The notes under the pieces: generated by a model
What the model saw: only the letters and a program-made list of their open reading frames with translations
Databases searched by the model: none
What the model was told of the DNA's origin: nothing
Source of the DNA: Thermoleophilia bacterium
GTDB taxonomy: Bacteria > Actinomycetota > Thermoleophilia > Gaiellales > F1-60-MAGs149
Direction of reading: 5' to 3'
DNA length: 64,000 nt
NCBI GenBank assembly: GCA_037133755.1
Contig: JBAXNN010000001.1
Location: forward strand, 148,838-212,837
Translations under genes and position numbers: made by a program
Shown here: positions 20,677-39,592 of the stretch, piece after piece
Layout: each line of letters opens with the position of its first letter
Numbering within the stretch: the first letter of the stretch is position 1

Positions 20677-21504
20677 CTACTGGTGGTACGTCAGCGGCGT
20701 GGCCAGCGCCGGCGGCATCCCAGGCTGCGTGTAGGGCTCGAGGAGCAGAGGGTCACCAAAGAATTGGTTGTATTGGCCAGCGAGGTGGCAGTCATCGGGG
20801 TTACCGTAGGACTGCGCGGCCGGCAGGGTATCCCGGTGAACCTGACCGCCAACGGTGAGGACGGGTTCGTTTGCTCCCCCCTTGACTAGGGCGCCCTCTG
20901 CGGGGGTGACCTGCCCTGCCCCTTGGTTGAGGTACGCCTGGCCGCTGCAGTCTCCTGTCGTGTACAAGATCCAAGCACTACTAAGCTCACTGGCAGTGGC
21001 GCTGGGTTGAGCCAGTCCCGATGATGCATTGATTTTCCAAACGGCGCCATCCACCAGACGGTAGAAATCCCCGCTCACGACGGGGCTCCCCGGCGTCGGC
21101 GCGGGAAGCCACATGACACCGCTGACCGTGTTCCCGTTGGCGTCGCGGACGGTGACGCCACCGCTCGAGCCACCCGAGCCACTCGCTCCGGCCGGACCCG
21201 CCGGTCCCGCGGGACCCGCCGGACCCGCGGGACCCGCCGGACCCGCGGGGCCTTGCGCCCCGTCCTTGCCGTCAAGCCCCTTCAGGGCTCCCTTGCTCAG
21301 ATCGGAGACCTCGATCGCGCCGCTCGCGATGTCACCCGAGCCGATGGCCCCGTCCTTGATATCGGACGACTGCACCGCGCCCTCCCTGATCTGCGCAGAC
21401 CCGACCGAGTTGGGCGCCAGGGCGACGGCGGCGTAGCCCGTCCCTCCCAGCGCAACGAACAATGCGAGTGTGGCGATGACGGTCGCCGCCGAAGGTTTCT
21501 TCAT
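20677..21504 (-). CDS. Secreted collagen-like repeat protein (CLP1)
   Basis: The ATG at 21504 gives MKKPSAATVIATLALFVALGGTGYAAVA (signal peptide). Next come DI..GA decapeptide-like repeats, then a G-X-Y tract GKDGAQ(GPA)7GAS, then a ~165-aa C-terminal domain. Confidence 0.8.
   Translation of the reverse strand: MKKPSAATVIATLALFVALGGTGYAAVALAPNSVGSAQIREGAVQSSDIKDGAIGSGDIASGAIEVSDLSKGALKGLDGKDGAQGPAGPAGPAGPAGPAGPAGPAGASGSGGSSGGVTVRDANGNTVSGVMWLPAPTPGSPVVSGDFYRLVDGAVWKINASSGLAQPSATASELSSAWILYTTGDCSGQAYLNQGAGQVTPAEGALVKGGANEPVLTVGGQVHRDTLPAAQSYGNPDDCHLAGQYNQFFGDPLLLEPYTQPGMPPALATPLTYHQ
21175..21273 (-). repeat. Collagen-like G-X-Y tract encoded by 9-bp GGNCCCGCS tandem repeats
   Basis: ggacccgccggtcccgcgggacccgccggacccgcgggacccgccggacccgcgggg on the top strand encodes (GPA)n. 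Confidence 0.85.
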
Positions 21505-21544: not shown

Positions 21545-21597
21545 CTGTATGGGTACCCCTATCGCCCGCGGCGCATCTGTATAGGTACCCCTATCGC
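21545..21597. promoter_or_regulatory. Cassette-1 direct repeats (candidate response-regulator operator)
   Basis: ctgtatgggtacccctatcgc (21545-21565) and ctgtataggtacccctatcgc (21577-21597) are 20/21 identical with a 32-bp period. They lie in the CLP1/RR1 divergent region. Confidence 0.6.
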
Positions 21598-21606
21598 GAC
21601 GTGACC

Positions 21607-24024: not shown

Positions 24025-27000
24025 CTACCCGACCTTGATCTTGATCGTGCGCACGATGCTCGTGCCGTTCTTGCGCTTGACCTTCATCTTCACCTTGTAG
24101 GTGCCGGGCTTCGACGCCACGAGCTTGCCGTTGACGAGGGTCAGGCCAGCCGGCAGGGCGTCGGCCATGTACTCGACCTTCGACGTCGGGCGCACCCAGA
24201 TGTTCGCGCCGCGCAGGAGGTCTGCACCAGCAGCCGGCGTGGCGGCGTCCAGGATGGCCTCACCGCGCGTCTCACCGACGGTGATGCCCGGCGCCGGCGA
24301 GAACACCGGCGGCGTCTCGACAGACGGGGTCGTCGCAGGCGGTGTCACGACCGGCGAGGCCGGCGACGGCACACGAATCGACGACTCGCTCAGAATCGCC
24401 AGCGCGTCAATTCGGTTCGAACCTGTCACGCGCACCCGCAGGTACCGACCGGCATCCGCGGCAGCCACGGTGTAGCTGCTTGTCGCAGCACCACTGCCCG
24501 AAGCGGTCTCCCACGTCGAACCATCCGCCGACGACTGCCACGCGTAGGCGTAGTCCGTCGCGAAGTCCCACGTGCCTGTCGACGCGGTCAATGTCGAGCC
24601 GATCCCAATCGTGCCCGAGACGACCGGCACAGCCGACGACGTCGGCGCGGGAATCGCGACCTGCGCCGTTGCCGCCGAGAACGCCTCTGCTGAGGCAGCC
24701 GCATTGGTGGCCGTCACCTTCACGCGCAGGTACTTGTTGTCGTCGGTCAGATCCACGACGTACTCCGCCGTATCTCCACCCTCACCGAGCGCAGCCGTCC
24801 AGCCATCCTGACCATTGGACGACACCTGCCACTCATACGCGTACCCCGCGTCAGTATCCGGCGCATTCGACCACGTACCTTGCGAGGCCGTCAGCGTCTC
24901 GCCAACCGTCGCCGTGCCCGAATTCTGCGGCGCATCCGCACCGCCCGCATTCATCGGCGGAGCAGGCACCGTCACGACCGAGCTGTACGCCGCATCCGAC
25001 CACGTCGCGCCGTTATGGGCAATGACACGGACCTTCAGATCCTTGCCGCCATACGACTCCGGCACCACGTACTCCGCGGTCGTCCCCGAAGCACCCGTGG
25101 CAGCCGTCCACGTGTCAGCACCACGGTTCGACACCAGCCAGCGATACGTATAGCGCTCCGGCGTATTAGTCCACTGACCGCTCGTCGCACTCACCGTGTT
25201 GCCAATCCCGACGTCGCCCGTCAGCTCCGGAGCACTACCGAACAGGATGGGCAACGCACCAACCGGAGTGCCTGGAATCGCCGCGAGGCTGTAATCGAGA
25301 GAGTTCACGGTCGCTAGACGGGCAGAGCTGGTGCCATCCAGCGACGCGATACCGACGCCGCTGTTCGCACCGTCTTGGATGACGTAATAGATGCCATTCT
25401 GGTCCACACCGATCCCGCCGTTGCCGTTCCCGGCATTCGAGCCGGCAGGGTTCGCGATGAACGACGGCTGCACATCGGAGCCAGTGACATCAGCACGTCC
25501 GATGGCAGCGTTGTTGTAGTAGGTCCAGTACACGTGGTCGCCATCGACCGCAATGCCTGCGACCCCAGCCGGCAGGCTGTCGACGAAGGTCTGACCCGTA
25601 CCGCCGGTGATTGGTGCCCGGCCGATTGCGCTGCCTGAGCCGGGGCCTCGGTGGTAGTAGATGTAGTGGGCGTCGCGCGCGAAGAAATGCATCGCGGTGT
25701 ACGTATTCGTGTCGATGAAGGTCGGGTCGTGCTCACTGCCGTCGATCTTCATCCGATGGATATACGTGTGACCGTTCACCCCGTTGTCGGTGAAGTAGAT
25801 GTACTGATCGTCAATGAGCACCCCGAAGAAATTCTGCGCTCCAGCGCTATAGATGCTGGCCGGCGCCGTGCTGCCATTGGCGGGAGCCACATAGATGTCG
25901 CCGCTGCAGCCCCAGACGTTGGTCGTGCCGTTGGAGGAAAAGCCCCAACCACCCGGATTCGCGTATGGCTGCAACGACGCACCATCAGCCATCAGTGATG
26001 CGCTCTTGACGTAGAGATGAGACAGCGTCGATAGTGCCGCCACCAGCGTGCTAGCGCTCGAGGCCGTGGCCGTGTTGCCGTTGAAGGCTGTGACCGTCAC
26101 GCGTACGTACTGGCCCACGTCGCCGGTCTGCGTGACATACCCGGCCGTGGCATTGCCAGGGCCCGTCGCGCTCACCCACGTCCCGAGAGCACCCGACGGC
26201 GACAACTGCCACTGGTAGGTGTACGTGATGTTCCCTGTGGACTCCGTCCACGCACCAGGCGTCGCAATCCTGAAGAGGCCGTTGAGCCTCACCGTCGGCG
26301 CGGTGTCGTTCACCGGCGCCGGTGGTGCGGCCACCACGACAGTCGCCGCCGAGTAGGCGGTCGTCAGCAGACCACCGGCCGCCCCGGCACGCACCTTGAG
26401 CCGTACCGTCTTGCCGATATCGGAGATGCCAGGCGCATAGGTGGCCTGGCCATTCGTGCCGGGAGCGGCCGACCACGTTGCGCCGCTATCGCTTGAGACT
26501 TGCCACACGTAGAACACCTGGGACGGCGTGGCCGACCACGTGCCGTCACCCGCCGTCAGCGTCTGCCCCACCGCAGGTGTCCCGCTGATCGTGGGCTGCG
26601 CACTGTTCGTGAGCGCAGCACCCAGTGGCGGCAGCGGGGTCCCGCCGCTGACATGCACCCGCGAGCGATTCGTCAAGTAGGTCATATCGGCGATTCCCGT
26701 CACAAGCGTCGGGTTGACGTCGGTACCGTCGAGCTTTGCGCTGCCAATCTGCCCACCGCTCCAATCGCGTGCCGCCCAGTACAGCCGGCTGCCCGTGGCA
26801 GTGATACCCCAGACCGTGCGCGAGTTCTGCGTGTCCAGCCACGTGTTGTTCTGATCGGTACCGTCGAGCTTGGCACGGCCGATGCGGTTGGAGTAGCTGG
26901 TGCTGACCCAGTACAGATAGGTGCCATCGGTGGTGATGCCGCGAACATCGCCCGTGTTGTTGACGAGCACCTGCGACGAGCCACCATCGATCGCTGTGCG

Positions 27001-28623
27001 GTAGATGGCATTGCCACCAAACGAGTACAGCCAGTTGGCATCGCCGGTCATGGCATGCCCCCACAGCACGCCGCTGCCGTCGGCGAAGTGCCGGATGTTG
27101 TGCTGGCCATCCACGTCGACTCGACCGATCCAGGTGTTCACCGAGCAGTTGTAATACAGGTACTCATCTGTGACGTACAAACTGCCAAGGCCGTAGTAGT
27201 TGCCGTCGTTACCCCGAACCGTGGAGCAGAGGGTGTCAACGAGCTCCGTTGCCGAGCCGGTTCCGTCGATGCTCTTCTGACAGATCTTGTCTGCATCCTG
27301 ACGCCCATAGAACATGGTGCTGTTCCATCCGAACGCGTCTTCTCTCGAACATGTGGTGCTGATGCTGTCGTCGCGACCGCCGGGAATCGCCACGCCCGTG
27401 GTGTCATTGATCCATGTAGAGCCCACCGCAGTGTTACCCGCCCAGTAGAGCGTCGTCGAGGGCAGCGGCGTCAGCGCAGCGATCGTCTGCGCCGACGAGT
27501 GCGCCGACGTCAGCACGCCGCCCGTCGCGCCCGCGCGCACCAGCACGCGAAGCTGTTTGCCGACATCGCCGCGCTTGGGCGCGTAGCTGCTCGTTGTCGC
27601 GTCAGCTCCTGCTCCGTTGGACCACGTGGATCCGCTGTCTGCCGACACCTGCCACTGGTAGTACACATCGTCAGGCGTGGCCGACCACGTTCCCGCATCG
27701 GCAGTGACGATCTCGCCCACCTGCACCGTGCCTGTTATCGCAGGCGCCGCGGAGAGGGTGAGCGCCGGACCGAGGGGCACCTTCGGCGTGCCCCCGATGA
27801 TCGAGATCTGATGGTTCTGGCCCGTTGCCGTGATGCCGGTGATCAGCGTCGGCTGCACATTCGTGCCGTTGAGGTTCGCCTTGCCGACCGTGCCTGGGAA
27901 GCGCGACGTCCAGAAGATGCTGCTGCCGTCGACCTCGACTCCCCAGACCTGGGCGGTCGACTGCGTGTCGAGCCAGGTGTGGTCGATACCGGTGCCGTCG
28001 AGGTTGGCGCGGTGGATGAAGCGGGAGTCAAACCCCGACCAGTAGATGTGCTGGCCGTCGACCGCGATCCCGCGCATGTCGAACCCGGCGTTGACGTTGT
28101 ACGTCGGGTCGATAGGTCCGCCGCTCTCAGGATTGACCCGGCGAATGCCCGCATAGCTATACCCGATGTACAGCCAATTCGCATCCGTGGTGAGGCTGTA
28201 GGGATAGTTGCCGTCCACGCCCCACGCGAAGTGCGGGTTGTTGTGGGTGCCGTCGAGGTTCGCTCGGCCGATCCACTTGCTGCGGACGCACGTGTAGAAG
28301 ATGTGCGAAGCAGATGCGGTGAAGCCCGCGATGCCGCACTGCGTATTCGCAACTGTTCGGTTCACGTTGCCGCCCGTCAGGTCCTGGGTGCAGATGTAGT
28401 TGCCACTCGTGCCGTACAGCGTGGTGGCGTCGGCGAAGAACGCGTACTCCGCCAGGCAGTTGGTGCTGACCGAGAAGTTGACGTTCGTGCCGTCCGTCGA
28501 CGCGGTGCCGATGCTCGAGTCGGCGCCCCAGTACAGGGACCCTGCTCGCGCCTGAGCCGAGAAAGTGCCGAACAGCGCGACAAGGAAAATGGCGATGACG
28601 GTCGCCGCCGAAGGCTTCTTCAT
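24025..28623 (-). CDS. Giant secreted protein: three YWTD/LDL-receptor-class-B-like beta-propeller regions alternating with Ig-like domains, plus a conserved C-terminal domain
   Basis: The ATG at 28623 gives MKKPSAATVIAIFLVALFGTFSAQARA, for 1532 aa. Recurrent blade motifs include LYWG/IYWS/IFWT/LYWA and IGRANLDGT/IGRAKLDGT/IGSAKLDGT. There are repeated ~90-aa modules of the type G.WS..P....Y.WQ.S.D.G..W......Y......D.G..LRV.V.A. Confidence 0.85.
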   Translation of the reverse strand: MKKPSAATVIAIFLVALFGTFSAQARAGSLYWGADSSIGTASTDGTNVNFSVSTNCLAEYAFFADATTLYGTSGNYICTQDLTGGNVNRTVANTQCGIAGFTASASHIFYTCVRSKWIGRANLDGTHNNPHFAWGVDGNYPYSLTTDANWLYIGYSYAGIRRVNPESGGPIDPTYNVNAGFDMRGIAVDGQHIYWSGFDSRFIHRANLDGTGIDHTWLDTQSTAQVWGVEVDGSSIFWTSRFPGTVGKANLNGTNVQPTLITGITATGQNHQISIIGGTPKVPLGPALTLSAAPAITGTVQVGEIVTADAGTWSATPDDVYYQWQVSADSGSTWSNGAGADATTSSYAPKRGDVGKQLRVLVRAGATGGVLTSAHSSAQTIAALTPLPSTTLYWAGNTAVGSTWINDTTGVAIPGGRDDSISTTCSREDAFGWNSTMFYGRQDADKICQKSIDGTGSATELVDTLCSTVRGNDGNYYGLGSLYVTDEYLYYNCSVNTWIGRVDVDGQHNIRHFADGSGVLWGHAMTGDANWLYSFGGNAIYRTAIDGGSSQVLVNNTGDVRGITTDGTYLYWVSTSYSNRIGRAKLDGTDQNNTWLDTQNSRTVWGITATGSRLYWAARDWSGGQIGSAKLDGTDVNPTLVTGIADMTYLTNRSRVHVSGGTPLPPLGAALTNSAQPTISGTPAVGQTLTAGDGTWSATPSQVFYVWQVSSDSGATWSAAPGTNGQATYAPGISDIGKTVRLKVRAGAAGGLLTTAYSAATVVVAAPPAPVNDTAPTVRLNGLFRIATPGAWTESTGNITYTYQWQLSPSGALGTWVSATGPGNATAGYVTQTGDVGQYVRVTVTAFNGNTATASSASTLVAALSTLSHLYVKSASLMADGASLQPYANPGGWGFSSNGTTNVWGCSGDIYVAPANGSTAPASIYSAGAQNFFGVLIDDQYIYFTDNGVNGHTYIHRMKIDGSEHDPTFIDTNTYTAMHFFARDAHYIYYHRGPGSGSAIGRAPITGGTGQTFVDSLPAGVAGIAVDGDHVYWTYYNNAAIGRADVTGSDVQPSFIANPAGSNAGNGNGGIGVDQNGIYYVIQDGANSGVGIASLDGTSSARLATVNSLDYSLAAIPGTPVGALPILFGSAPELTGDVGIGNTVSATSGQWTNTPERYTYRWLVSNRGADTWTAATGASGTTAEYVVPESYGGKDLKVRVIAHNGATWSDAAYSSVVTVPAPPMNAGGADAPQNSGTATVGETLTASQGTWSNAPDTDAGYAYEWQVSSNGQDGWTAALGEGGDTAEYVVDLTDDNKYLRVKVTATNAAASAEAFSAATAQVAIPAPTSSAVPVVSGTIGIGSTLTASTGTWDFATDYAYAWQSSADGSTWETASGSGAATSSYTVAAADAGRYLRVRVTGSNRIDALAILSESSIRVPSPASPVVTPPATTPSVETPPVFSPAPGITVGETRGEAILDAATPAAGADLLRGANIWVRPTSKVEYMADALPAGLTLVNGKLVASKPGTYKVKMKVKRKNGTSIVRTIKIKVG

Positions 28624-28663
28624 GCAAACCAACGTACGCGCGCGCTATAAGCCGCACGCGAAG

Positions 28664-28715
28664 GTGTCGTACTTACCGCCCCACTACCAACCGCAAGTGT
28701 CGTACTTCCCGCCCC
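28664..28715. promoter_or_regulatory. Cassette-2-type direct repeats upstream of the giant gene
   Basis: gtgtcgtacttaccgcccc (28664-28682) and gtgtcgtacttcccgcccc (28697-28715), period 33 bp. They are part of a 125-nt block (28591-28715) that matches 30767-30891 with 8 mismatches. Confidence 0.6.
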
Positions 28716-28792
28716 TCGGCGCGGCTCCAGGGCGTAGGCGCGCCGCGGTGCCGCGCTACGGGTAGCGCGTCCCGGAGGTCGCCCGCGCCGGC

Positions 28793-30799
28793 TCAGCCGG
28801 TGACGCCCGGCAGAGCCGGCGGGGGCGACACCACGACGGTGCGTGTCGTCGTGCGCGCAGTGCCACCGGTCGGCGTGAAGGTCGTCGTGACGACCACGGC
28901 ACGGCGCGTGGCGACGGCCTCGAGGTGGCAGATCAGCGTCACGGTCGTCGCGCGGGTCACCGTCTCGGTCGCAGTGCAGGCCGCACGCCGCGCCGATGAC
29001 ACCCGGCGATACACGCCACGCTGCGTGACACGACCAGCCGAAGGGAGGCGGATGCTGGTGATGATCGACGTACCGACGGTCCGCGACGACAGAGCACGAA
29101 ACCGATTCGACGGCGGCGTCGGAGCGGCAGCGGTCGCCGTCGGCGTGGATGCGGTGGTCGCCGCCGCCGCGCCGGGAGTCGTCGGAGCCGCGCTATCGAC
29201 GGTGAACGTCGCCGTCGCACTGGTCGCACCGGTGATCGTCACGCTGCACGTCGTCGAGGTACCCGTACAGGCTCCGCTCCAGCCCGCGAACGTCGAACCG
29301 CTGGCCGGCGTGGCCGTGAGCGTCACCGTGCTCGACAGCGTGAACGAGGCACTGCAGGTTGCCCCGCAGCTGATCCCGGCCAGTGACGAGACCACCGAGC
29401 CACTGCCGCTACCGGCAGTGGAAACGATGAGCAAGGCGCTCGTCGGGGCAGCGCGGGTGACGGCCTGGATCAACCCCGAGCCCACTTCGCCCCAGACAAC
29501 GGTCGTGGCTCCGTCAGGCGCGACGGCGATCTGAGGGTACCGGGCGTCCAGTCCCGCAGCGGAGAGGTCCGCAGGGGGATCAGCCACAGGATCGGGCCAG
29601 CTACCGCCTGCAGGGCGCGTTGCGGCCTGGACGGTGTGCGCCGAGTAGACATCTTCGTGCGCCCACACGACCGTTGTTGACCCGTCAAACGCGATCGCGA
29701 TCTGGGGGTTTTGGGCATCCTCAAGCGTCACGTAGAGCTCGGACGATGTGCCCCAGGTGTTCGACCCGGCAGGGCGGGTAGCAGCCTGGATGGAGTTGAC
29801 CGCGAAGCCGTCAGTGTTGTGCCACACGACCGTTGCGGACCCATCGGACGCGATCGCGAGCTTGGGGTATCGGGCATCCTCACCCATCGCAGAGAGGACG
29901 GCCGGTATGCCCCAGGTGTTCGACCCGGCGGGGCGGGTGGCAGCCTGAATGGAGTTAACCGAGAGGCCGTCTTGGCGCTGCCACACGACCGTGGCGGTTC
30001 CGTCGGATGCGATCGCGATCTGGGGGTTCTGCGCATCCTCACCCGTCGCGGAGAGGACGGCCGGTGCGCCCCAGGTGTTCGATCCGGCAGGGCGGGTGGC
30101 AGCCTGGATGGAGTACCCCGAGGGGCCCTCGGAGTGCTGCCACACGACCGTTGCGGACCCATCGGACGCGATTGCGATCTCGGAGTAGAAGGAGATCTCG
30201 CCCACCACGGAGAGGTTCACGGGAGTGTCAACCGCAGGGTCGGGCCAGCTGCCCCCTGCGGGGCGCGTTGCGGCCTGGATGACGTAGCCGCCGGAGCCGT
30301 CGTCGGCGTACCACACGGCAGTTGCGGCGCCGTCGGCCGCAATAGCGATCTGGGGTAGATAGGCAAACGTACTCACCATGGAGATTTCCACGGGAGGACC
30401 CCAGGTGTTCGAGCCGGCGGGGCGGGTAGCAGCACAGATGCGGTCGTCGCTTGCCCAGATGGCCGTGGCCGATCCGTCGGCCGCAATAGCGATCTGGGGG
30501 TATGTGTTGTTCTGCCCCGTCACCGAGAGGACGTCCAACGTGCCCCACGTATTCGATCCGGCAGGGCGCGTGGCGGCCTGGATGATGTAGTTCGTGCCGT
30601 CGAAGTGGGACCAGACTGCCGTGGCGGCTCCATCGGGCGCGACGGCGATCTGCTGACTGCTATTCCCAGTCGTCGCGGCAACGTCAACGGGCGCACCCCA
30701 CGTGACTGCCTCGGCCGACGACGACGACGCGAGGACGACGGCCATCGACACGGCGAATGCGAGTGCGGCGATGACGGTCGCCGCCGAAGGCTTCTTCAT
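28793..30799 (-). CDS. Secreted repeat protein (7-8 units of ~48-53 aa, beta-propeller-like), Ig-like GWSGAC-type domain, PAT linker, Cys-containing C-terminal domain ending in VTG
   Basis: The ATG at 30799 gives MKKPSAATVIAALAFAVSMAVVLASSSSAEA. The unit is IQAATRPAGSNTWG.P..LS..G..A..PQIAIA.DG.ATVVW. The three central units are 159-bp DNA repeats (ccccaggtgt at 29751, 29910 and 30069). Confidence 0.8.
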   Translation of the reverse strand: MKKPSAATVIAALAFAVSMAVVLASSSSAEAVTWGAPVDVAATTGNSSQQIAVAPDGAATAVWSHFDGTNYIIQAATRPAGSNTWGTLDVLSVTGQNNTYPQIAIAADGSATAIWASDDRICAATRPAGSNTWGPPVEISMVSTFAYLPQIAIAADGAATAVWYADDGSGGYVIQAATRPAGGSWPDPAVDTPVNLSVVGEISFYSEIAIASDGSATVVWQHSEGPSGYSIQAATRPAGSNTWGAPAVLSATGEDAQNPQIAIASDGTATVVWQRQDGLSVNSIQAATRPAGSNTWGIPAVLSAMGEDARYPKLAIASDGSATVVWHNTDGFAVNSIQAATRPAGSNTWGTSSELYVTLEDAQNPQIAIAFDGSTTVVWAHEDVYSAHTVQAATRPAGGSWPDPVADPPADLSAAGLDARYPQIAVAPDGATTVVWGEVGSGLIQAVTRAAPTSALLIVSTAGSGSGSVVSSLAGISCGATCSASFTLSSTVTLTATPASGSTFAGWSGACTGTSTTCSVTITGATSATATFTVDSAAPTTPGAAAATTASTPTATAAAPTPPSNRFRALSSRTVGTSIITSIRLPSAGRVTQRGVYRRVSSARRAACTATETVTRATTVTLICHLEAVATRRAVVVTTTFTPTGGTARTTTRTVVVSPPPALPGVTG

Positions 30800-30839
30800 G
30801 CGCGCCAACGTACGCGCGCGCTATAAGCCGCACGCGAAG

Positions 30840-30891
30840 GTGTCGTACTTCCCGCCCCACCAGCAGCCGCAAGTGTCGTACTTACCGCCCC
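30840..30891. promoter_or_regulatory. Cassette-2 direct repeats (candidate RR2 operator)
   Basis: gtgtcgtacttcccgcccc (30840-30858) and gtgtcgtacttaccgcccc (30873-30891) are 18/19 identical with a 33-bp period. Confidence 0.6.
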
Positions 30892-30913
30892 CCGTCGTGC
30901 TCTGGGTTGGTCG

Positions 30914-30919
30914 TAGACT
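30914..30919 (+). promoter_or_regulatory. Candidate -10 box TAGACT for RR2
   Basis: The hexamer end is 10 nt before the ATG at 30929, the same geometry as the other three cassettes. Confidence 0.5.
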
Positions 30920-30928
30920 GCTCGCATG

Positions 30929-31576
30929 ATGCTGCGCGTGCTGCTGATCGAGGACGAGGACCTCCTTCGCCTCGCCCTTGCCTCCATGCTGCCCGACGAG
31001 ACGATCGAGGTCGTCGGGGCGTTCGCGGATGGCGCGAGCGCCGTGGAGGCCGCGAAGACGACCGATTTCGACGTGCTCGTCACCGACCTCGACCTGGGGA
31101 ACGAGCAGGCGCCGAACGGCATCGTTGTCGCCAACGTCCTGCGTCGCACAAAGCCCGACATCGGCATCGTGCTGCTGACGTCGTATGCGGATCCGCGGCT
31201 CGTCGGCGCCAAGCTCAACCAAGTGCCCGACCGCACTGAGTACATCCGCAAGCAGTCGGTGCGGGACATGGACGCGCTGCGCGCCGCGATTCGCCGCGCG
31301 GCATACGCCCACACCGACGTGATGACGCCGCTGCCCGAGGTCGAATTGACCGATGGGCAGATCGAGACGATGCGACTCGTCGCGCAAGGGCTCACCAACA
31401 GCGAGATCGCGCGCCAGCGCGTCGTGTCGGAGCGCACCGTCGAGAAGTCGATCCAGCGGATCGCACAGGTGCTCGGCGCGACCGGGGACTCGACGACCAA
31501 CACGCGCGTGCTGCTCGTGCGCGCGTACTTCGAGCTCGCCGGGGGCAAGGGTGCCCAAGACAAGCTCCCGTCCTAG
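30929..31576 (+). CDS. Response regulator, receiver plus LuxR/NarL-type HTH (RR2)
   Basis: MLRVLLIEDEDLL..DVLVTDLDL..LTDGQIETMRLVAQGLTNSEIARQRVVSERTVEKSIQRIAQVLG. I prefer the second ATG (30929) over 30926, by alignment with the paralogs and the -10 spacing. Confidence 0.9.
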   Translation: MLRVLLIEDEDLLRLALASMLPDETIEVVGAFADGASAVEAAKTTDFDVLVTDLDLGNEQAPNGIVVANVLRRTKPDIGIVLLTSYADPRLVGAKLNQVPDRTEYIRKQSVRDMDALRAAIRRAAYAHTDVMTPLPEVELTDGQIETMRLVAQGLTNSEIARQRVVSERTVEKSIQRIAQVLGATGDSTTNTRVLLVRAYFELAGGKGAQDKLPS

Positions 31577-33260
31577 CGCGCGCGAGCTGCTGGGTGGCCG
31601 CTGGGCGATCTCGGTCCGCGGCTGGCTGATCCTCTCTGTCGTCACCGTGATCAGCGCGATCGGGATCCGAGCGCAGTTGGGCGTCTCGACGCCGGCCGCG
31701 GCAGCGTTCACGCTCGCGTTCTGGCTGCTGGCGACAGCCATGTTCGTGGCTGCGCACCTGACCATCTTCCGTAACCGCCGCACCAAGCCCGTCCACATCG
31801 CGTGGCTGATCGCGTTCGCCATCAGCATTGGGATCGTGCGCGTGGCCGTGGCGTTTGCCGTCCCCGAGATCCGTGCCGCGCTGGGCGATGGCTGGCCGGG
31901 CGCATTCACAGCCGTCGTCTCCTTCGTCCCGGGCACAGTGCTGCTCGTCGTGCTGGTCGCGTACCTCCTCGCCGTGACCGACTGGTACGCCTCCGAGCGC
32001 ATACGGCTTCTGCACTTCGAGATCGACGCCGAAGCCGCGCGCCTGCGTGCCATCGGCGCGCTCAATGCCGCGCGCTCGGTGATCACCACCCGCATTCAAA
32101 CAGCGCTCGAGGGCCAGCTGAGCGAACTCGAACGCGCCGCCAAGGTCGATGACGCCGACGTGCGCCTCTCCGACGTGCTCCTCGACACCGCCGTCGGGTA
32201 CGTGCGCCCCGAGAGCCACCGGCTCTGGCAGGAGCGCGATCCCGCCCTGCGCCGCGGCACCCTTGCCGACGTCGAACGAGCGAGCCTCTCCGCCCCCCTG
32301 CCGATCGCGCTGCCCTTCGCGCTGTGGGCGGTCGTCATCGTCCCCGTGGCCATGGTGCGCTTCGGCGCCGGACACGGAATGTTGAGCGCACTCGCCGTGC
32401 TGACCGCCATGGCCGTGCTCTATCCGCTCGGTCGCGCTGCCGTCCGCCGCTACACGCCCGCACCACGCTATATCCGCGCGCGCCTGCTCACGCTCGTGTT
32501 CATGGCGGGCGCCGCCCTCGCCGGACCAGGCACGACGCTGCTGGGTGGGGCGAACACCACGCTGCAGCTGCAGCAGATCATGGCCGCCTTGATGATCGTC
32601 GTCGCGACGATCGCCGTCAGCTGGGCCCAGGCCGCACTCCGCGCGCAGGATGCGCGTCTGCGCTCCCTGCGCTCCCATGCCGAGGAGGCCGACTTCGAGC
32701 GCCTCGCGCTCGAGGCCGCGACCGAGCAGATGCAGCGCGAGCTCGCGCTCTATCTCCACGGCACGGTGCAGGCCGGCCTCGTGGCGTCGGCGTACTCGAT
32801 CCAGGACGCCGCCAATCGCGGCGACTCCGAGGCGCTCGAGACGGCGATCGCCGACGCCCGCTCCGCCATCGCGCAGCTGGGCAATGACGACGAGCGCGCG
32901 GCGATGGTCGACTTCGCCGAGCTGTCGCAGCGGTTTGACGCGAAGTGGCGCGGCATGATCGCGATCACCTGGGAGCTGCCAGGCGAGGCGACGACCGACG
33001 TGGCGCTGCAGCGCGTCAGCGACGTGGTGCAGGAGTGCCTCGCCAACGCCACGATCCACGGTGCCGCGACGGAGGCGACCGTGCGCGTCGTCGTCGAGGA
33101 CGACAGCGCGATCGTCGAGGTCACCGACGACGGCACCGGTGTCGGTGACGGCAAGCCCGGCCTCGGCAGCGCCGTCCTCAACGAGGCGACGGGCGGCCGA
33201 TGGACGATCGCGTCGATGCCGACCGGTGGCGCGCAGGTGCGCGCCGTCGTGCCGGTCTAG
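31551..33260 (+). CDS. Membrane sensor histidine kinase paralog (HK2)
   Basis: The GTG at 31551 (VPKTSSRPSARELLGGRWAIS) aligns with the starts of the other three kinases and overlaps RR2 by 26 nt. The longer track ORF from 31353 runs through RR2 in another frame. Architecture and H/N/G boxes match HK1. Confidence 0.8.
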   Translation: MPKTSSRPSARELLGGRWAISVRGWLILSVVTVISAIGIRAQLGVSTPAAAAFTLAFWLLATAMFVAAHLTIFRNRRTKPVHIAWLIAFAISIGIVRVAVAFAVPEIRAALGDGWPGAFTAVVSFVPGTVLLVVLVAYLLAVTDWYASERIRLLHFEIDAEAARLRAIGALNAARSVITTRIQTALEGQLSELERAAKVDDADVRLSDVLLDTAVGYVRPESHRLWQERDPALRRGTLADVERASLSAPLPIALPFALWAVVIVPVAMVRFGAGHGMLSALAVLTAMAVLYPLGRAAVRRYTPAPRYIRARLLTLVFMAGAALAGPGTTLLGGANTTLQLQQIMAALMIVVATIAVSWAQAALRAQDARLRSLRSHAEEADFERLALEAATEQMQRELALYLHGTVQAGLVASAYSIQDAANRGDSEALETAIADARSAIAQLGNDDERAAMVDFAELSQRFDAKWRGMIAITWELPGEATTDVALQRVSDVVQECLANATIHGAATEATVRVVVEDDSAIVEVTDDGTGVGDGKPGLGSAVLNEATGGRWTIASMPTGGAQVRAVVPV

Positions 33261-35425
33261 CCGACCTTGATCTTGATCGTCCGCAGCTTGGTCGTACCGT
33301 TGGCGCGCTTGACCTTCACCTGCACCTTGTAGGTACCGGGTACCGTCGCGACGAGCTTGCCATTGACGACCTTGAGGCCCGCCGGCAACGCATCGGGCAC
33401 GTACTCGACCTTGGACGTCGAGCGGACCCAGATGTTCGCACCGCGGAGGAGATCCGCGCCTGCAGCCGGCACGGCTGCGGCTAGATTCGCCTCACCACGC
33501 GTCTCGCCGACGGTGATGCCCGGCGCCGGCGAGAACACCTGGGGTGTCTCCGGCGAAGGCTCTGCCACCGGCGTGACGACTGGTGCGACCGGCGCAGCCG
33601 GTGTCGGCACGCGAATCGACGAAGCGCTCGTGGATTCCTGCGAGTCGACGCGATTCGTACCCGTTACGCGCACACGCAGGTACCGGCCCGCGTCCGCTGC
33701 GGCGACGATGTAGGTGTTCGTCGCGGCACCCGTGCCGGGAGCCGTCTGCCACGTTGAGCCGTCCACAGACGATTCCCATGCGTAGGCGTAACCCGTGGCG
33801 AAATCCCACGTGCCCGTCGAGGCCGTCAGCGTGGAGCCGATCGTGACCGTGCCCGTGATCGCCGGCACCTCCGTCGGCGACGGCGGGAGGATGTCGACAA
33901 GCGTCTGCGTGTACGCCGTCGCGACGTTTGAGCCGCCGTCGTTCGTTGCCGTCACCTGCGCCCGCAGGTACTTGTTGTCGTCGGTCATGTCCACGTCGTA
34001 CGTCGCCGAATCCGCGCCGTCACCGAGCGCGGGCTCCCACGTATCCGGAGCCCCGGAGGCCGACACCTGCCACGCATACGCGTACGCCGTTGGCTGCTGC
34101 TGCGATGCCCATGAACCTGTATCGACCGACAGCGTTTCGCCGACCTGGACCGTGCCCGTCAGCTGTGGCGTGACGCTGCTGACCGGCGCCACCGGCAGCA
34201 CCGCATTGGTCGCCATCGAGTACCCGACCGTGGCGCCGCCGTCGTTGGTCGCCGTCACCTTGACGCGCAGGAACTGGGCGTACTCGGCGGCAGCCGGGTA
34301 GTAGCTCGCCGTCGCGGTGCCCGTGCCCGCACCTGTCACCCAGCCGGACTCGCCGTTCGGCGATACCTGCCAGAGGTAGGTATACCCGCTGGCGTCGGCC
34401 GGCGGATTCATCCACGTCCCGGTCCCTGCCGAGAGCACCACATCAACCTTGGGCGTGCCGGTGATCGCCGGCGCCACCGTGTTGATCGGCGACGGTAGCG
34501 GCAGCAGCTTGGCCGTACCGCCAACGACCTTCAGCTGCGCGTGCTCGTTGCTCGAGGAGATACCAGCGCCGGTGATCAGACTCGAGTTCGCGTTGGCACC
34601 GCTGAGATCGGCGCGGCCGATCGCACCGCCGCCACTACGCCGCGCCCAGTAGATCGAGCTGCCGGTCACCGTCACACCGAACGTGTCCGAGCCGGAGCTG
34701 AGCCACGAAGCATTCGAGCCGGTGCCATTGAGTTTCGCCCGCCCGATGGTCGTACCGTTGTTGATGGCCCAGTAGACGTGCCGGCCATCGACGTCGATGC
34801 TGCGCACATCGCCGACACACAGGCTGAAGTTCGGATCGACGCCACTCCCGTCGATGTGGTAACGCTGCATGCAGCTGTACACGCCCGTGTTCCCCACGTA
34901 CAGCCAGTCATCACCCGCCGCGATCGCAGTCGTGTAACTGTCGTTCGGACCTGCGGGCGTCGCCGTGAAGTTCAAGATCGGATTCGTGCCCGCGACATCC
35001 ACCCTGCCGAGCCGGCTCGTGTTCATGCACGCCCAGTAGACGTATAGATCCGTCGCGTAGATGCCGCCGACCCCCAGGCCCCCACACCCGGTGGCGACGA
35101 GCGTCGACGAGCTGCCCGTGCCATCGAGCCGCATCTGGCAGATGTCGCTGTTGGAACGGCTGTAGTACATGGTGCTGTTCGCAGACCAGCTCCAGTCGCC
35201 GTTGCAGCCGGTGCTGACCGCATTGTTCGGGCTGCCCGATAGCACGCCCGTGGCGTCATCGATCTCCTGCGTGCCGACCGACGAGTTGCCCGCCCAGTAG
35301 ATGGAGGCCGCCGATGCCTGTGCGACTGAGCATGTGAGCAGTCCGCACAGAGCGAGGACGCCCACGAGGACAGGGCGGTGAAGCCGTGGGCGGAGAACGG
35401 CAGAGAACGACAAGAAACGCGGCAT
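33257..35425 (-). CDS. Secreted YWTD-propeller/Ig-like mosaic protein (paralog of the giant protein) with the same C-terminal domain
   Basis: 722 aa with signal-like MPRFLSFSAVLRPRLHRPVLVGVLALCGLLTCSVAQASA. Contains IYWAGNSS, VYWAC, IGRAKLNGT and IGRADLSG blades and four Ig-like modules. The last ~95 aa align with the giant protein C-terminus (PQVFSPAPGITVGETRGEA...IKIKVG). Confidence 0.85.
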   Translation of the reverse strand: MPRFLSFSAVLRPRLHRPVLVGVLALCGLLTCSVAQASAASIYWAGNSSVGTQEIDDATGVLSGSPNNAVSTGCNGDWSWSANSTMYYSRSNSDICQMRLDGTGSSSTLVATGCGGLGVGGIYATDLYVYWACMNTSRLGRVDVAGTNPILNFTATPAGPNDSYTTAIAAGDDWLYVGNTGVYSCMQRYHIDGSGVDPNFSLCVGDVRSIDVDGRHVYWAINNGTTIGRAKLNGTGSNASWLSSGSDTFGVTVTGSSIYWARRSGGGAIGRADLSGANANSSLITGAGISSSNEHAQLKVVGGTAKLLPLPSPINTVAPAITGTPKVDVVLSAGTGTWMNPPADASGYTYLWQVSPNGESGWVTGAGTGTATASYYPAAAEYAQFLRVKVTATNDGGATVGYSMATNAVLPVAPVSSVTPQLTGTVQVGETLSVDTGSWASQQQPTAYAYAWQVSASGAPDTWEPALGDGADSATYDVDMTDDNKYLRAQVTATNDGGSNVATAYTQTLVDILPPSPTEVPAITGTVTIGSTLTASTGTWDFATGYAYAWESSVDGSTWQTAPGTGAATNTYIVAAADAGRYLRVRVTGTNRVDSQESTSASSIRVPTPAAPVAPVVTPVAEPSPETPQVFSPAPGITVGETRGEANLAAAVPAAGADLLRGANIWVRSTSKVEYVPDALPAGLKVVNGKLVATVPGTYKVQVKVKRANGTTKLRTIKIKVG

Positions 35426-35465
35426 TCGTCCACGCTAAGCCACGTCCCGCATCTGCTGACCGACC

Positions 35466-35515
35466 TGTCGTACTGCCCGTATCGCGCCTCGAGCGTGTGT
35501 CGTACTGCCCGTATC
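35466..35515. promoter_or_regulatory. Cassette-3 direct repeats (candidate RR3 operator)
   Basis: tgtcgtactgcccgtatc at 35466-35483 and 35498-35515, 18/18 identical, 32-bp period. Confidence 0.6.
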
Positions 35516-35526
35516 TGTCACTGACC

Positions 35527-37943: not shown

Positions 37944-38828
37944 TTACGACCGGTCGTACGTGAACGGACCGTGGAGCGGGCTGGGGGTACTCACCGGCGT
38001 GAGCTGCAGCACATCCATGTCCGCATTGGCCCTATTTGCCCACATCCACCTGCCGCTAGCGCTGTTCGTGCAGACGACCGGATCGCTCAGATGGGATGGG
38101 TCTGAGTCGTATCCGGACACCGGGTGGCCAGCGACGTGATGGACCGTCGTGCCGCTCACTCTGTAACTCTGACGATCATTGTAGTCAGCCCGAAGACCGT
38201 CGCCGACACGCTCGGCGGGGAATTCCCCGGAGGCGGTCTTTTGGACGTACGCGGGACCGGAGCAGTCATCAGAGAGAAAGAAAATGACCTCCCGAACAAT
38301 TCTGAACCCCTGCGAGCCATCCGAAACGACAAGCAACGTGTCGCCATTCACGGTGCGGTAGAAGGAGCTGACCGCGCCGGTCCAAGGATTGGCATCGGGT
38401 GCCGGTAGGGGCAACACACCGCTGACCACATTGCCATCCGCATCGCGGATCGTTACGCCACCGCCACCACCGGAGCTGCTGCCGGCCGGACCGGCAGGGC
38501 CCTGAGCGCCGGTCGCACCCTTGGGGCCGGCGGGACCCGCCGGACCCTGCGCGCCGTCCTTGCCGTCGAGCCCGTTCATCGCGCCCTTGCTGAGGTCGGA
38601 GACCTGGATGGAACCGGCCTTGATGTCGTCGCCGCCGATCGCGCCGTTGGCGATGTCGTCCGAGCTGACGGCACCATCCTTGATGTCGGACGACTGCACC
38701 GCACCGTCCTTGATCTGCGCGGAGCCGACCGAGTTGGGCGCCAGGGCGACGGCGGCGTAGCCCGTCCCTCCCAGCGCAACGAATAGTGCGAGTGTGGCGA
38801 TAACGGTCGCCGCCGAAGGCTTCTTCAT
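37944..38828 (-). CDS. Secreted collagen-like repeat protein (CLP2)
   Basis: 294 aa. The first 53 aa are almost identical to CLP1 (2 substitutions). The G-X-Y tract is GKDGAQGPAGPAGPKGATGAQGPAGPAG (DNA about 38475-38567). The C-terminal domain is divergent. Confidence 0.8.
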   Translation of the reverse strand: MKKPSAATVIATLALFVALGGTGYAAVALAPNSVGSAQIKDGAVQSSDIKDGAVSSDDIANGAIGGDDIKAGSIQVSDLSKGAMNGLDGKDGAQGPAGPAGPKGATGAQGPAGPAGSSSGGGGGVTIRDADGNVVSGVLPLPAPDANPWTGAVSSFYRTVNGDTLLVVSDGSQGFRIVREVIFFLSDDCSGPAYVQKTASGEFPAERVGDGLRADYNDRQSYRVSGTTVHHVAGHPVSGYDSDPSHLSDPVVCTNSASGRWMWANRANADMDVLQLTPVSTPSPLHGPFTYDRS

Positions 38829-38868
38829 GCGTCCACGCTATGCCAGCCCGCAGGGCGGTTCATCGTCG

Positions 38869-38918
38869 TGTGAGGATTCCCGTAGGTGGTTTCCCACAAC
38901 TGTCGTGTTTACCGTAGA
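38869..38918. promoter_or_regulatory. Cassette-4 repeats (one good site plus a degenerate upstream copy)
   Basis: tgtcgtgtttaccgtaga lies at 38901-38918. The copy 32 bp upstream (38869-38886) conserves only the 3' half (t.ccgtag). Confidence 0.4.
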
Positions 38919-38929
38919 CGGCGGTGAAC

Positions 38930-38935
38930 TACACT
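38930..38935 (+). promoter_or_regulatory. Candidate -10 box TACACT for RR4
   Basis: The hexamer end is 10 nt before the ATG at 38945. Confidence 0.45.
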
Positions 38936-38944
38936 CGCCACACG

Positions 38945-39592
38945 ATGCTCCGCGTGCTCCTGCTCGAGGACGAAACCCTGCTGCGCCTCACCCTCGCGTC
39001 GACGCTGCCCGACGAGACGATGACCGTCGTCGGCGCGTTCGAGGACGCCAAGAGCGCGGTCGCCGCGGCCGCCGAGACGCCGTTCGACGTGCTCGTCACC
39101 GACCTCAACCTCACCACCGGCTCGGGGCCGAATGGCATCGCCGTCGCCACGGTGGTGCGCCGTCGGTTTCCCGAGGTGGGCATCGTGCTGCTCACCTCCT
39201 ATGCCGATCCCCGTCTCGTCGGCGCGAAGCTCTCGCAGGTGCCCGACCGCACCGAGTACATGCGCAAGCAGGACGTCCGCGACATCGAGATGCTGCGCTC
39301 GGTGATCCGCCGCGCCGCCTTCGGCTCGGTCGATCGCCTGACCGACCTGCCGGCCGTCGACCTAACCGATGTGCAGATCGAGACGATGCGGCTGATCGCA
39401 CAGGGGCTCAACAACGCGGAGATCGCGCGCCAGCGCGTCGTGACGGAGCGCGCCGTCGAGCAGTCGATCAACCGGATCGTGCGCAGTCTCGGCTATGACA
39501 ACGACTCGAGCCTCAACCGGCGGGCGCTGATCATCCGCGCGTACTACGAGCTGACCGGTAGCGGCAATGCCCCTAACGCGACCTCGTCCTAG
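38945..39592 (+). CDS. Response regulator, receiver plus LuxR/NarL-type HTH (RR4)
   Basis: I prefer the ATG at 38945 (MLRVLLLEDETLL) over the track GTG at 38924, by paralog alignment. HTH is LTDVQIETMRLIAQGLNNAEIARQRVVTERAVEQSINRIVRSLG. Confidence 0.9.
   Translation: MLRVLLLEDETLLRLTLASTLPDETMTVVGAFEDAKSAVAAAAETPFDVLVTDLNLTTGSGPNGIAVATVVRRRFPEVGIVLLTSYADPRLVGAKLSQVPDRTEYMRKQDVRDIEMLRSVIRRAAFGSVDRLTDLPAVDLTDVQIETMRLIAQGLNNAEIARQRVVTERAVEQSINRIVRSLGYDNDSSLNRRALIIRAYYELTGSGNAPNATSS

Follow-up and report, generated by a model that had tools for sequence, protein, structure and literature searches.

The DesK-DesR system of Bacillus subtilis, whose target gene des encodes a desaturase, combines a NarL-family response regulator with a multi-pass membrane kinase without a large extracytoplasmic domain, is dedicated to a neighbouring target, and has a target promoter in which neighbouring sites for the regulator precede the -35 region. 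The actinobacterial NarL-type regulator DosR/DevR of Mycobacterium tuberculosis is autoregulated and activates several promoters, in which two or more boxes of about 20 bp lie upstream of a TANNNT-type -10 box. Inverted repeats are the usual binding targets of NarL/LuxR-type regulators. Duplication of a cis-regulatory module is a general route to the growth or retention of a regulon, and in aquatic bacteria strain-variable genomic islands encode giant cell-surface proteins.

Here we describe a locus in an uncultured freshwater actinobacterium of the class Thermoleophilia that resembles each of these in part. The window, that is, the whole stretch of DNA analysed (64,000 nucleotides), carries an array of four paralogous cassettes, in which the gene of a secreted protein is divergent from the genes of a NarL-type response regulator and a multi-pass membrane kinase. 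The features of cassette 2, with regulator RR2 and kinase HK2, and of the giant gene beside it are as follows.

24025..28623, minus strand: giant gene, 1532 aa, with a Sec-type signal peptide (from the translation)
28591..28623, minus strand: leader of the giant gene (MKKPSAATVIA, 11 codons), 33/33 identical to 30767-30799
28631..28636, minus strand: predicted -10 hexamer of the giant gene, TACGTT, 7 nt upstream of the ATG
28664..28682, plus strand: giant-proximal unit GTGTCGTACTTACCGCCCC, presumed to bind RR2, at -41 to -59 relative to the ATG
28697..28715, plus strand: giant-distal unit GTGTCGTACTTCCCGCCCC, presumed to bind RR2, at -74 to -92 relative to the ATG
28716..28792, no strand: unique 77-nt spacer from the duplicated module to the 668-aa stop codon, without regulator -10 box or convincing terminator
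28793..30799, minus strand: gene of the 668-aa secreted protein, with a signal peptide (from the translation)
30767..30799, minus strand: leader of the 668-aa gene, 33/33 identical to the giant copy
30807..30812, minus strand: predicted -10 hexamer of the 668-aa gene, TACGTT, 7 nt upstream of the ATG
30840..30858, plus strand: 668-aa-proximal unit GTGTCGTACTTCCCGCCCC, from the motif scan and unit comparison
30873..30891, plus strand: unit adjoining the RR2 promoter, GTGTCGTACTTACCGCCCC, ending 22 nt short of the RR2 -10 box
30914..30919, plus strand: predicted -10 box of the RR2-HK2 operon, TAGACT, 9 nt before the RR2 ATG (30929), missing from the giant-gene copy
30929..31576, plus strand: RR2, NarL/FixJ-type response regulator (receiver and GerE helix-turn-helix)
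31551..33260, plus strand: HK2, membrane histidine kinase; about 8-9 hydrophobic segments arranged in two blocks, ATPase domain at the C-terminus

The cassettes share with DesK-DesR the family of the regulator, the kind of kinase, the dedication to a neighbouring target and the adjacent sites upstream of -35, and several HK2 homologues are labelled 'DesK' by JGI. RR2 has a receiver domain (PF00072, 4.8e-14, 52.9 bits where the cut-off is 30.2, with the EDE and FDVLVTDLDL motifs in the alignment) and a C-terminal GerE/LuxR-type helix-turn-helix (PF00196, 1e-8, 35.1 bits where the cut-off is 23.5). Among the NCBIfam equivalogs (MadR, EvgA, NarL, DesR-like and others) none scored above its cut-off for RR2, the best being MadR with 59.5 bits against 300. 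Unlike DesK, HK2 has no detected HisKA_3 domain, its HATPase_c match (24.8 bits) is below the Pfam cut-off of 26.4, and its hydrophobic segments form two blocks; the NarX, UhpB and MadS models match the C-terminal part only, far under their cut-offs, and an H-box-like LHGTVQ is found at about residue 402. The targets also differ from a desaturase, being secreted beta-propeller/Ig-repeat proteins, and the promoters are divergent and probably leaderless, in an arrangement of three to four paralogous tandem cassettes.

DosR/DevR resembles the proposed role of RR2 in its autoregulation and its several activated promoters, and the placement of two boxes upstream of a TANNNT-type -10 box is similar. 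However, Dev boxes are palindromic, whereas the units here repeat directly at a spacing of 32-33 bp, and the DosR/DevR regulon comprises dozens of genes, whereas the window shows two genes and the operon itself. As in regulon growth by cis-module duplication, a complete operator-promoter block stands before two unrelated coding sequences; unlike a plain duplication, it is tied to a gene that appears intercalated between the regulator and its old target, and this recurs in a second lineage (L017), where the boundaries are different. The conserved flanks and the variable large secreted repeat proteins recall the giant-surface-protein islands, but here each gene seems to be wired to its own two-component system by a class-specific operator.

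An earlier note on this DNA had proposed that a promoter-operator-signal-peptide module of 125 nt had been copied from cassette 2 onto the giant gene, and that RR2 controls both genes. The alignment on which this proposal was based was borne out, because 28591-28715 and 30767-30891 align without gaps and are identical at 117/125 positions (8 mismatches). A repeat search (family D20) extended the pair to 131 nt at 92% identity (28591-28721/30767-30897), and identity drops to background within a few bases on either side. The likeness is not confined to the coding leader, as the non-coding part is itself 84/92 identical, and there are only two copies of the module in the window. The giant gene was confirmed to have no adjoining regulator, being flanked by the 3′ end of kinase 1 (23956) and the stop of the 668-aa gene (28793), and past codon 11 its product shows zero detectable similarity to the 668-aa protein by BLASTP. 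The same leader, with 1 mismatch each, also opens the targets of cassette 1 (21472-21504) and cassette 4 (38796-38828). Therefore, the pair-specific part is the 92-98 nt of non-coding sequence (28624-28715/28721). The "signal-peptide" component is likewise smaller than its name, since the module includes the first 11 codons of the signal peptide, corresponding to the n-region only.

The 8 mismatches map to -3 to -5, the N position of each unit and the inter-unit spacer, while the remaining 36 unit positions, the -10 box and the ATG are free of them, a purifying pattern (post hoc test, P about 0.025). Orthologous copies of the non-coding part are identical at 80-88/92 positions across strains. 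Because the divergence of the two paralogous copies equals this between-strain divergence, the giant-gene copy has stayed intact over a comparable time. The spacer at 28716-28792 has no homologue in any locus compared, and its predicted fold was no better than that of shuffled sequences (z = +0.6). A terminator scan of the spacer gave nothing, and the sole terminator-like match, which sits within the coding sequence of the leader, lacks credibility. Since there is thus no clear terminator between the 668-aa and giant genes, read-through could contribute to giant-gene expression. No Rfam match was found in 28300-31100 on either strand at E-values up to 1.

In a survey of 15-16 cassettes from 8 loci, every intergenic region of the window and its relatives showed the same layout of target -10 box, two 19-bp direct repeats and regulator -10 box, with a unit spacing of 32-33 bp within pairs. 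TANNNT was found 6-7 nt before the ATG in 15/16 target promoters of the family, and the distance from the end of the proximal unit to this box was 27-30 nt in 15/16 targets. On the regulator side, 15 of the 16 genes examined have TAGACT or TACACT 9 nt ahead of the start codon, and the second unit ends 11 or 22-23 nt from this -10 box. All five target-side regions of the window align with both units and the -10 box in register. For actinobacterial promoters, PMC3898074 places the centre of TANNNT 7-12 bp ahead of the transcription start, and classes a start as leaderless when it is no more than 5 bp from the start codon. Because the -10 box ends 6-7 nt before the target ATG, the target mRNAs, those of the giant and 668-aa genes included, are probably leaderless, and in both copies the 7-nt gap is too short for any Shine-Dalgarno sequence. 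No promoter was detected when the sigma-70 consensus of E. coli was used for scanning, a blank that is expected for a GC-rich actinobacterium but lends the predicted promoters no support.

The 19-mer GTGTCGTACTTNCCGCCCC, with up to 3 mismatches allowed, matched the window only at 28664, 28697, 30840 and 30873, all on the plus strand. The expected count was 0.14, and four matches were reached in 0/100 shuffles; these counts refer to 64 kb of a 317-kb contig. The earlier note had also stated that the two variants are swapped in order, and this is so: the giant gene has TTA then TTC, and cassette 2 has TTC then TTA. A functional meaning of the swap was rejected, because the same position is A, C, T or G across the related loci L019, L041 and L017; it varies freely among strains, and the order is therefore without visible meaning. 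Written as a pattern, the RR2-type unit is GTGTCGTACTTNCCGCC, occurring in pairs 32-33 bp apart. Scanning for the exact motif gave 18 single matches in a genome contig collection, about the number expected by chance, of which only L017 was real on inspection, and 22 single matches in a metagenome contig collection, where L041 alone belongs to a cassette locus. The few copies, the fixed promoter context and the collection scans, which gave chance singletons apart from L017 and L041, led us to reject a mobile element or a REP-like repeat.

Several cassette classes resemble one another in the unit's 5′ half (GTGTCGTACT). The 3′ part is class-specific and common to both units of each intergenic region. 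Over several genomes, six classes of this 3′ part pair with six classes of regulator recognition helix, a covariation that could partly reflect shared descent because regulator and intergenic region are physically linked. The RR2 clade, which comprises the window, L019, L017 and L029, has the helix TVEKSIQRIAQ, as in RR2 itself, and pairs with ..CCCGCC(CC) units.

The giant protein has three YWTD/DUF5050-like beta-propellers (Pfam DUF5050 at 1.5e-14) and Ig-like repeats, and ends in a conserved Ig-like domain of about 100 aa, for which Pfam gave sub-threshold Ig-like matches only. A homologue search with its N-terminal 420 aa returned only distant YWTD-propeller proteins (up to 46% identity over short stretches) and missed the orthologue in L029. 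This orthologue, L029_1567, is 69% identical to residues 9-1532 of the giant protein. It is divergent from an RR2-clade regulator 79% identical to RR2, with CCCGCC-type units between them. The order in L017 is giant gene, two units, a 723-aa gene, two units and RR2-clade regulator, the duplicated module being about 77 nt long compared with 125-131 nt in the window. L029 and L017 are 93-98% identical at the nucleotide level, and L029 has a single hybrid module. RR2-clade units thus accompany the giant-gene orthologue in three genomes. The gene next to RR2 differs by strain, being the 668-aa gene here, a collagen-like gene in L019 (at least 75 aa, truncated by the contig end) and another, similar collagen-like gene in L041.

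Since the orthologue in L029 adjoins an RR2-clade regulator and L017 has another gene intercalated at that place, the giant gene appears to be the partner that the RR2 clade had ancestrally, and the 668-aa gene the intercalated one. Accordingly, only part of the proposal of a module copied onto a different gene held: the promoter, the two operator-like repeats and the 11 codons are present, but the giant gene does not look newly recruited. Homology between the giant protein and its L029 orthologue begins only at residue 9, and the native N-terminus in L029 and L017 is MHPSHTHAS... These comparisons suggest that in the window lineage the promoter-proximal part and the leader were copied or converted, replacing the native giant N-terminus.

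As to regulation, near-identical promoter copies carrying the same repeat pair point to one regulator on both genes, and comparison of the loci gives good support to the predicted control of both by RR2. In this respect the earlier interpretation remains the best reading of the comparative data, apart from its premise that the giant gene is new to RR2. We propose that the segment of 125-131 nt belongs to cassette 2 and makes up a complete promoter module that depends on an activator, with repeats centred near -50 and -83, 33 bp apart, on the same helix face. HK2 would phosphorylate RR2, which would then bind both repeats and activate, rather than repress, the two divergent units, the 668-aa gene and the RR2-HK2 operon, the latter amounting to autoregulation. 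Through the second repeat copy RR2 would activate the giant gene too, and therefore one sensor would drive two adjacent Sec-secreted repeat proteins. Historically, the giant gene would have been a target of the RR2 clade already when a second target gene lodged between it and the regulator. The resulting operator duplication is as expected from single-crossover (Campbell-type) integration or from unequal crossing-over via the shared module, and in the window lineage the giant gene would also have exchanged its promoter-proximal part and its N-terminal leader for the MKKPSAATVIA-type version. We assign a probability of roughly 0.65 to this explanation as a whole, in which the RR2 module drives both genes, the giant gene is the old target and the 668-aa gene is intercalated.

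The giant-gene copy might instead be a recombination scar with no present function, the giant gene being constitutive or transcribed by read-through from the 668-aa gene; its source could be gene conversion spreading from the 33-nt leader or the remnant of a deleted regulator-kinase pair. The leader is homogenised among four genes of the window, which indicates that gene conversion is active there, and the lack of a convincing terminator would permit read-through. That the copy stops right past the distal unit is also what deletion of the regulator genes would leave, but conversion borne by the leader does not explain this exact stop past the second unit, here and in L017. Moreover, the mismatches all lie outside the unit cores and the -10 box despite a divergence equal to the between-strain level, and RR2-clade units occur at the giant-gene orthologue in three genomes, so that we regard a functionless scar as unlikely.

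That the repeats are bound by another factor, for example a global regulator, or are a structural element of the promoter, so that control by RR2 is not implied, seems quite improbable. Direct repeats are indeed atypical for dimers of GerE-type helix-turn-helix proteins, and the 5′ half of the unit is similar across several cassette classes; however, the 3′ half is matched within pairs and changes with the recognition helix across the six classes, and the regulator is the only DNA-binding protein that each cassette encodes. The tandem order could also be false, if two strain variants had been joined at the repeated 125 nt. The window does come from a metagenome-assembled genome (in which the 668-aa protein is P0080), and strains with another RR2-adjacent target exist (L019 and L041). 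Yet neither a collapse nor a join at the repeat can make the unique junction 28716-28792, which leads from the distal unit to where the 668-aa gene ends, and the same topology was independently assembled in L017; on these two grounds the assembly chimera was rejected as hardly credible.

If RR2 binds both copies, the locus would be a clean natural case of a regulon keeping a gene after another has wedged in, although retention by a duplicated promoter is tidy but ordinary. The presence or absence of the intercalated gene in L017 and L029, the three RR2-adjacent genes in three strains and the leader homogenised in four genes lead us to a wider, tentative idea. The array might be a plug-and-play system in which the promoter/operator/leader module is a portable recombination site for surface-protein genes. 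It is conceivable, if still doubtful, that genes are inserted, excised and swapped among insulated paralogous two-component systems, with operator duplication keeping a displaced gene in the regulon. If this were true, the surface repertoire of freshwater Thermoleophilia would be strain-variable yet always sensor-controlled. The array also suggests that the large variable surface proteins of these freshwater bacteria may be individually sensor-controlled and not constitutive. Six paralogous NarL-type regulators with matched, apparently private operators make a data set for a DNA-recognition code, and the cassette family is suited to the study of insulation between paralogous two-component systems in a lineage without cultured members. 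Current understanding is not overturned by this but extended to an unstudied group.

The 79 HK2 homologues found are all from uncultured bacteria; few have taxon names, and these are mostly Gaiellales or Thermoleophilia. The 668-aa protein consists of about 8 repeats of about 53 aa (PQIAIA.DG..T.VW), seen in the DNA as 159-nt internal repeats, and has an InlB B-repeat domain (Pfam Flg_new_2 at 1.6e-9). The related cassette loci L017-L029, which were fetched by kinase and motif searches, have no homologue of it as a target, and the closest relative found is P0082 (674 aa, 53% identical), in the more distant locus L052. The array forms an island flanked by conserved genes, and closely related genomes differ in the large secreted repeat proteins that it encodes.

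Four paralogous cassettes stand in tandem at 20677-41279 of the GC-rich window, and in each a minus-strand secreted-protein gene (the target) is divergent from a regulator-kinase gene pair (RR and HK, numbered by cassette). The regulators are of the NarL/FixJ type, with a receiver domain and a GerE helix-turn-helix. In relatives, the left flank (acetyl-CoA synthetase, M23 peptidase, radical SAM protein) and the right flank (menaquinone biosynthesis gene) are kept, and cassette number and content vary among genomes (three cassettes in loci L020/L021). Control by RR2 of both the giant gene and the 668-aa gene, which the earlier note had predicted, is the best-supported explanation of the predicted promoters and repeats described here, at a probability of roughly 0.65.

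Features of the cassette array (window coordinates)
Cassette 1: 275-aa target, minus strand, then RR1-HK1
21545-21563 and 21577-21595: cassette 1 direct repeats, CTGTATGGGTACCCCTATC
24025-28623, minus strand: giant gene, between cassette 1 and the 668-aa gene
Cassette 2: 668-aa gene, 28793-30799, minus strand, then RR2-HK2
Cassette 3: 722-aa target, minus strand, then RR3-HK3
35465-35483 and 35497-35515: cassette 3 direct repeats, CTGTCGTACTGCCCGTATC
Cassette 4: 294-aa target, minus strand, then RR4-HK4
Near 38865-38920: cassette 4 direct repeats, a degenerate pair

The earlier note had proposed that 28591-28715 matches 30767-30891 without gaps and with 8 mismatches, and alignment gave exactly this (117 of 125 positions identical). 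In a repeat search, the pair (family D20) reached 131 nt at 92%, and position-by-position comparison at the same offset fell to background at once outside that span. The similarity goes past the coding leader, as 92-98 nt of non-coding DNA are also duplicated. The 19-mer GTGTCGTACTTNCCGCCCC (up to 3 mismatches) occurs in the window only at 28664, 28697, 30840 and 30873, against 0.14 occurrences expected, and not one of 100 shuffled sequences gave as many. The TTA and TTC variants of the repeat stand in opposite order in the two copies, as had been noticed, a swap without visible meaning. The 33 coding nt of the leader are identical in the giant and 668-aa genes, and past codon 11 the two proteins have no detectable similarity, in agreement with the note. 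Leader copies encoding MKKPSAATVIA lie, however, at four genes (21472-21504, 28591-28623, 30767-30799 and 38796-38828; up to one mismatch), those of the cassette 1 and 4 targets with one mismatch each, and therefore only the non-coding 92-98 nt are specific to the pair. In the more distant loci L020 and L024, the leader differs at synonymous sites. Such likeness of the leaders suggests concerted evolution, with gene conversion acting within the window genome.

By alignment, a single architecture was found in all five target-side upstream regions of the window, and also in loci L017, L019, L020, L024, L028 and L029. In the target sense, it consists of two 19-bp direct repeats (units; 32-33 bp start to start), 27-30 nt, TANNNT, 6-7 nt and ATG, and on the regulator side of 11-12 nt (22-23 in the RR2 clade), TAGACT or TACACT, 9 nt and the start codon. 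In Mycobacterium tuberculosis, the centre of TANNNT lies 7-12 bp upstream of the transcription start, and an mRNA counts as leaderless when transcription begins no more than 5 bp from the start codon (PMC3898074); given the similar spacing, leaderless or almost leaderless mRNAs are probable here for both the target and the regulator genes. Both copies have units at -41 to -59 and -74 to -92 (A of ATG as +1), upstream of the -35 region, a predicted placement that fits activation over repression. A distance of 22 nt separates the end of the second unit from the RR2 -10 box in the cassette-2 copy, and the same sites could therefore also serve RR2 autoregulation; the giant-gene copy has no TAGACT box, and its similarity stops within 6 nt past the distal unit. 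By type, the system would be a two-component regulon of the NarL family in an unstudied lineage, with a divergent promoter under autoregulation and an operator present in duplicate. An Rfam search of 28300-31100, on either strand, gave no family match.

Between the regulator-side unit and the regulator -10 box (30892-30913 for RR2 versus 21596-21606 and 35516-35526), the RR2 clade has a gap of 22-23 nt; the other clades that were measured have 11-12 nt, and L019b, where the units are degenerate, has 32 nt. The difference between the RR2 clade and the others is about one helical turn, and the longer gap may alter the contact of the regulator with RNA polymerase at its own promoter.

The note had described a module copied onto a different gene. 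The duplication of promoter, repeats and leader stands; a newly recruited giant gene and a leader confined to the pair do not. Residues 9-1532 of the giant protein are 69% identical to a 1567-aa protein of locus L029, whose gene is divergent from an RR2-clade regulator across CCCGCC-type units; the giant gene is therefore the old, ancestral partner of this clade and not a new recruit. In the window, it has lost the native N-terminus (MHPSHTHAS... in L029 and L017) and gained the MKKPSAATVIA leader, exactly to the repeat edge. For the 668-aa protein, no homolog was found among targets of closely related loci; in the close strains L019 and L041, the RR2-adjacent gene is a different, collagen-like one with a MKKPSAATVIATLALF leader. 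The 668-aa protein is identical to P0080, from a metagenome-assembled 'Thermoleophilia bacterium' (317-kb contig), and is a member of a widespread family. Its best relative (53% identical, 674 aa) lies co-directionally in the more distant L052 (1700-5611), near a regulator with 48% identity to RR2 and two cassette-type genes of the collagen-like kind, with only one recognisable unit upstream (GGGTACGGGTAGTACGACAG).

The recognition helix divides the regulators into six classes, and the 3′ part of the unit differs from class to class.

Recognition helix and 3′ part of the unit in each regulator class
TVEKSIQRIAQ: ..CCGCC(CC)
GAVEVSLRRIAR: ..CCCCTATC
AVEQTVNRIAR: ..CCCGTATC
AVEQSINRIVR: ..CCGTAG
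AVEMSIRRIVR / AVEMSIYRIAR: ..CCCGAATA
AVEKSLSRIAQ: ..CCGTA(T/C)C

The RR2 clade (window RR2; L019, 98% identical; L017 and L029, 79% identical) is paired with CCGCC-type units in every case. This covariation is not independent proof, because the regulator and the intergenic region are linked. The class-specific 3′ part is common to both units within a region, and such matching argues for a class-specific binding protein; the sole DNA-binding protein of the cassette is the regulator. That the repeats are bound by a factor other than RR2 is accordingly improbable. It is somewhat less improbable, and still unlikely, that the giant-gene copy is a functionless recombination scar and the giant gene is expressed by read-through. 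The 8 mismatches fall at -3 to -5 (past the -10 box but before ATG), at the unit N positions -52 and -85 and in the inter-unit spacer at -62, -64 and -67; the -10 box, ATG and the remaining 36 unit positions have none (P ~0.025, post hoc). Over the non-coding nt, the paralogous copies agree at 84 of 92 positions, and the orthologous RR2-adjacent copies of other strains at 80-88 of 92; from this equal divergence, the giant-gene copy is not brand new, and its predicted functional elements are all intact.

Least probable, at a very slight chance, is a tandem arrangement created by misassembly. A parallel case is found in L017, from a different metagenome-assembled genome, in the order giant-gene N-terminus, two units, 723-aa gene, two units, TAGACT and RR2-clade regulator. 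There the direct duplication is about 77 nt (two units plus 19 nt of the target side) and flanks the 723-aa gene, which encodes a protein unrelated to the 668-aa protein; each of the two genes keeps its own -10 box and leader. The nucleotide identity of L017 and L029 runs from 93% in the regulator-kinase region to 98% at the giant gene end; L017 (1-2710) has the 723-aa gene wedged between giant gene and RR2-clade regulator, and L029 (9060-9310) lacks it. The single module of L029 corresponds to the left part of the giant-gene copy in L017 joined to the right part of the regulator copy there, the pattern expected if a gene were inserted or excised by recombination through the shared module. The comparison shows that, whenever a gene separates the giant gene from the regulator, the giant gene and the gene in between each have a unit pair. 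All three alternatives are less likely than RR2 control of both genes. That surface-protein genes under sensor control are shuffled through the module, which would then be a portable site of recombination, is a tentative idea, which we consider doubtful.

A C-terminal domain of about 100 aa (24025-24330, 33257-33560) is about 80% identical among otherwise different large targets (giant, 722-aa, L020_555, L020_508 and L029_514; 55-59% for L017_723) and is absent from the 668-aa protein. In Pfam it drew only sub-threshold Ig-like matches; its common role may be to anchor these proteins, or it may offer recombination a second handle. At 29492-30652, the 668-aa gene encodes eight copies of a repeat of about 53 aa (159-nt period; PQIAIA.DG..T.VW ... 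IQAATRPAGSNTWG), which probably form a beta-propeller, and these match the NCBIfam model 'PDIAV motif-containing lipoprotein' below threshold.

In HK2 (31551-33260), the hydrophobic segments, about 8-9 in number, are grouped at residues 19-140 and 250-360; a cytoplasmic-looking linker of about 100 aa parts the two blocks, and no HisKA family was detected in the protein. The mere 79 detectable homologs of HK2 among 5.8 billion proteins are all from uncultured bacteria, and the few with a taxon name are mostly Gaiellales or Thermoleophilia. The longest ORF of RR4 starts at GTG 38924 (38924-38947 region); homology and the rule of TACACT plus 9 nt place its predicted real start at ATG 38945. The start of RR2 is, in like manner, 30929, not 30926. 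Outside the array, 62091-63875 encodes a 594-aa protein that combines BspA-type leucine-rich repeats with fibronectin type III domains, and has internally repeated DNA at 62365-62665, and this is a further variable surface protein.
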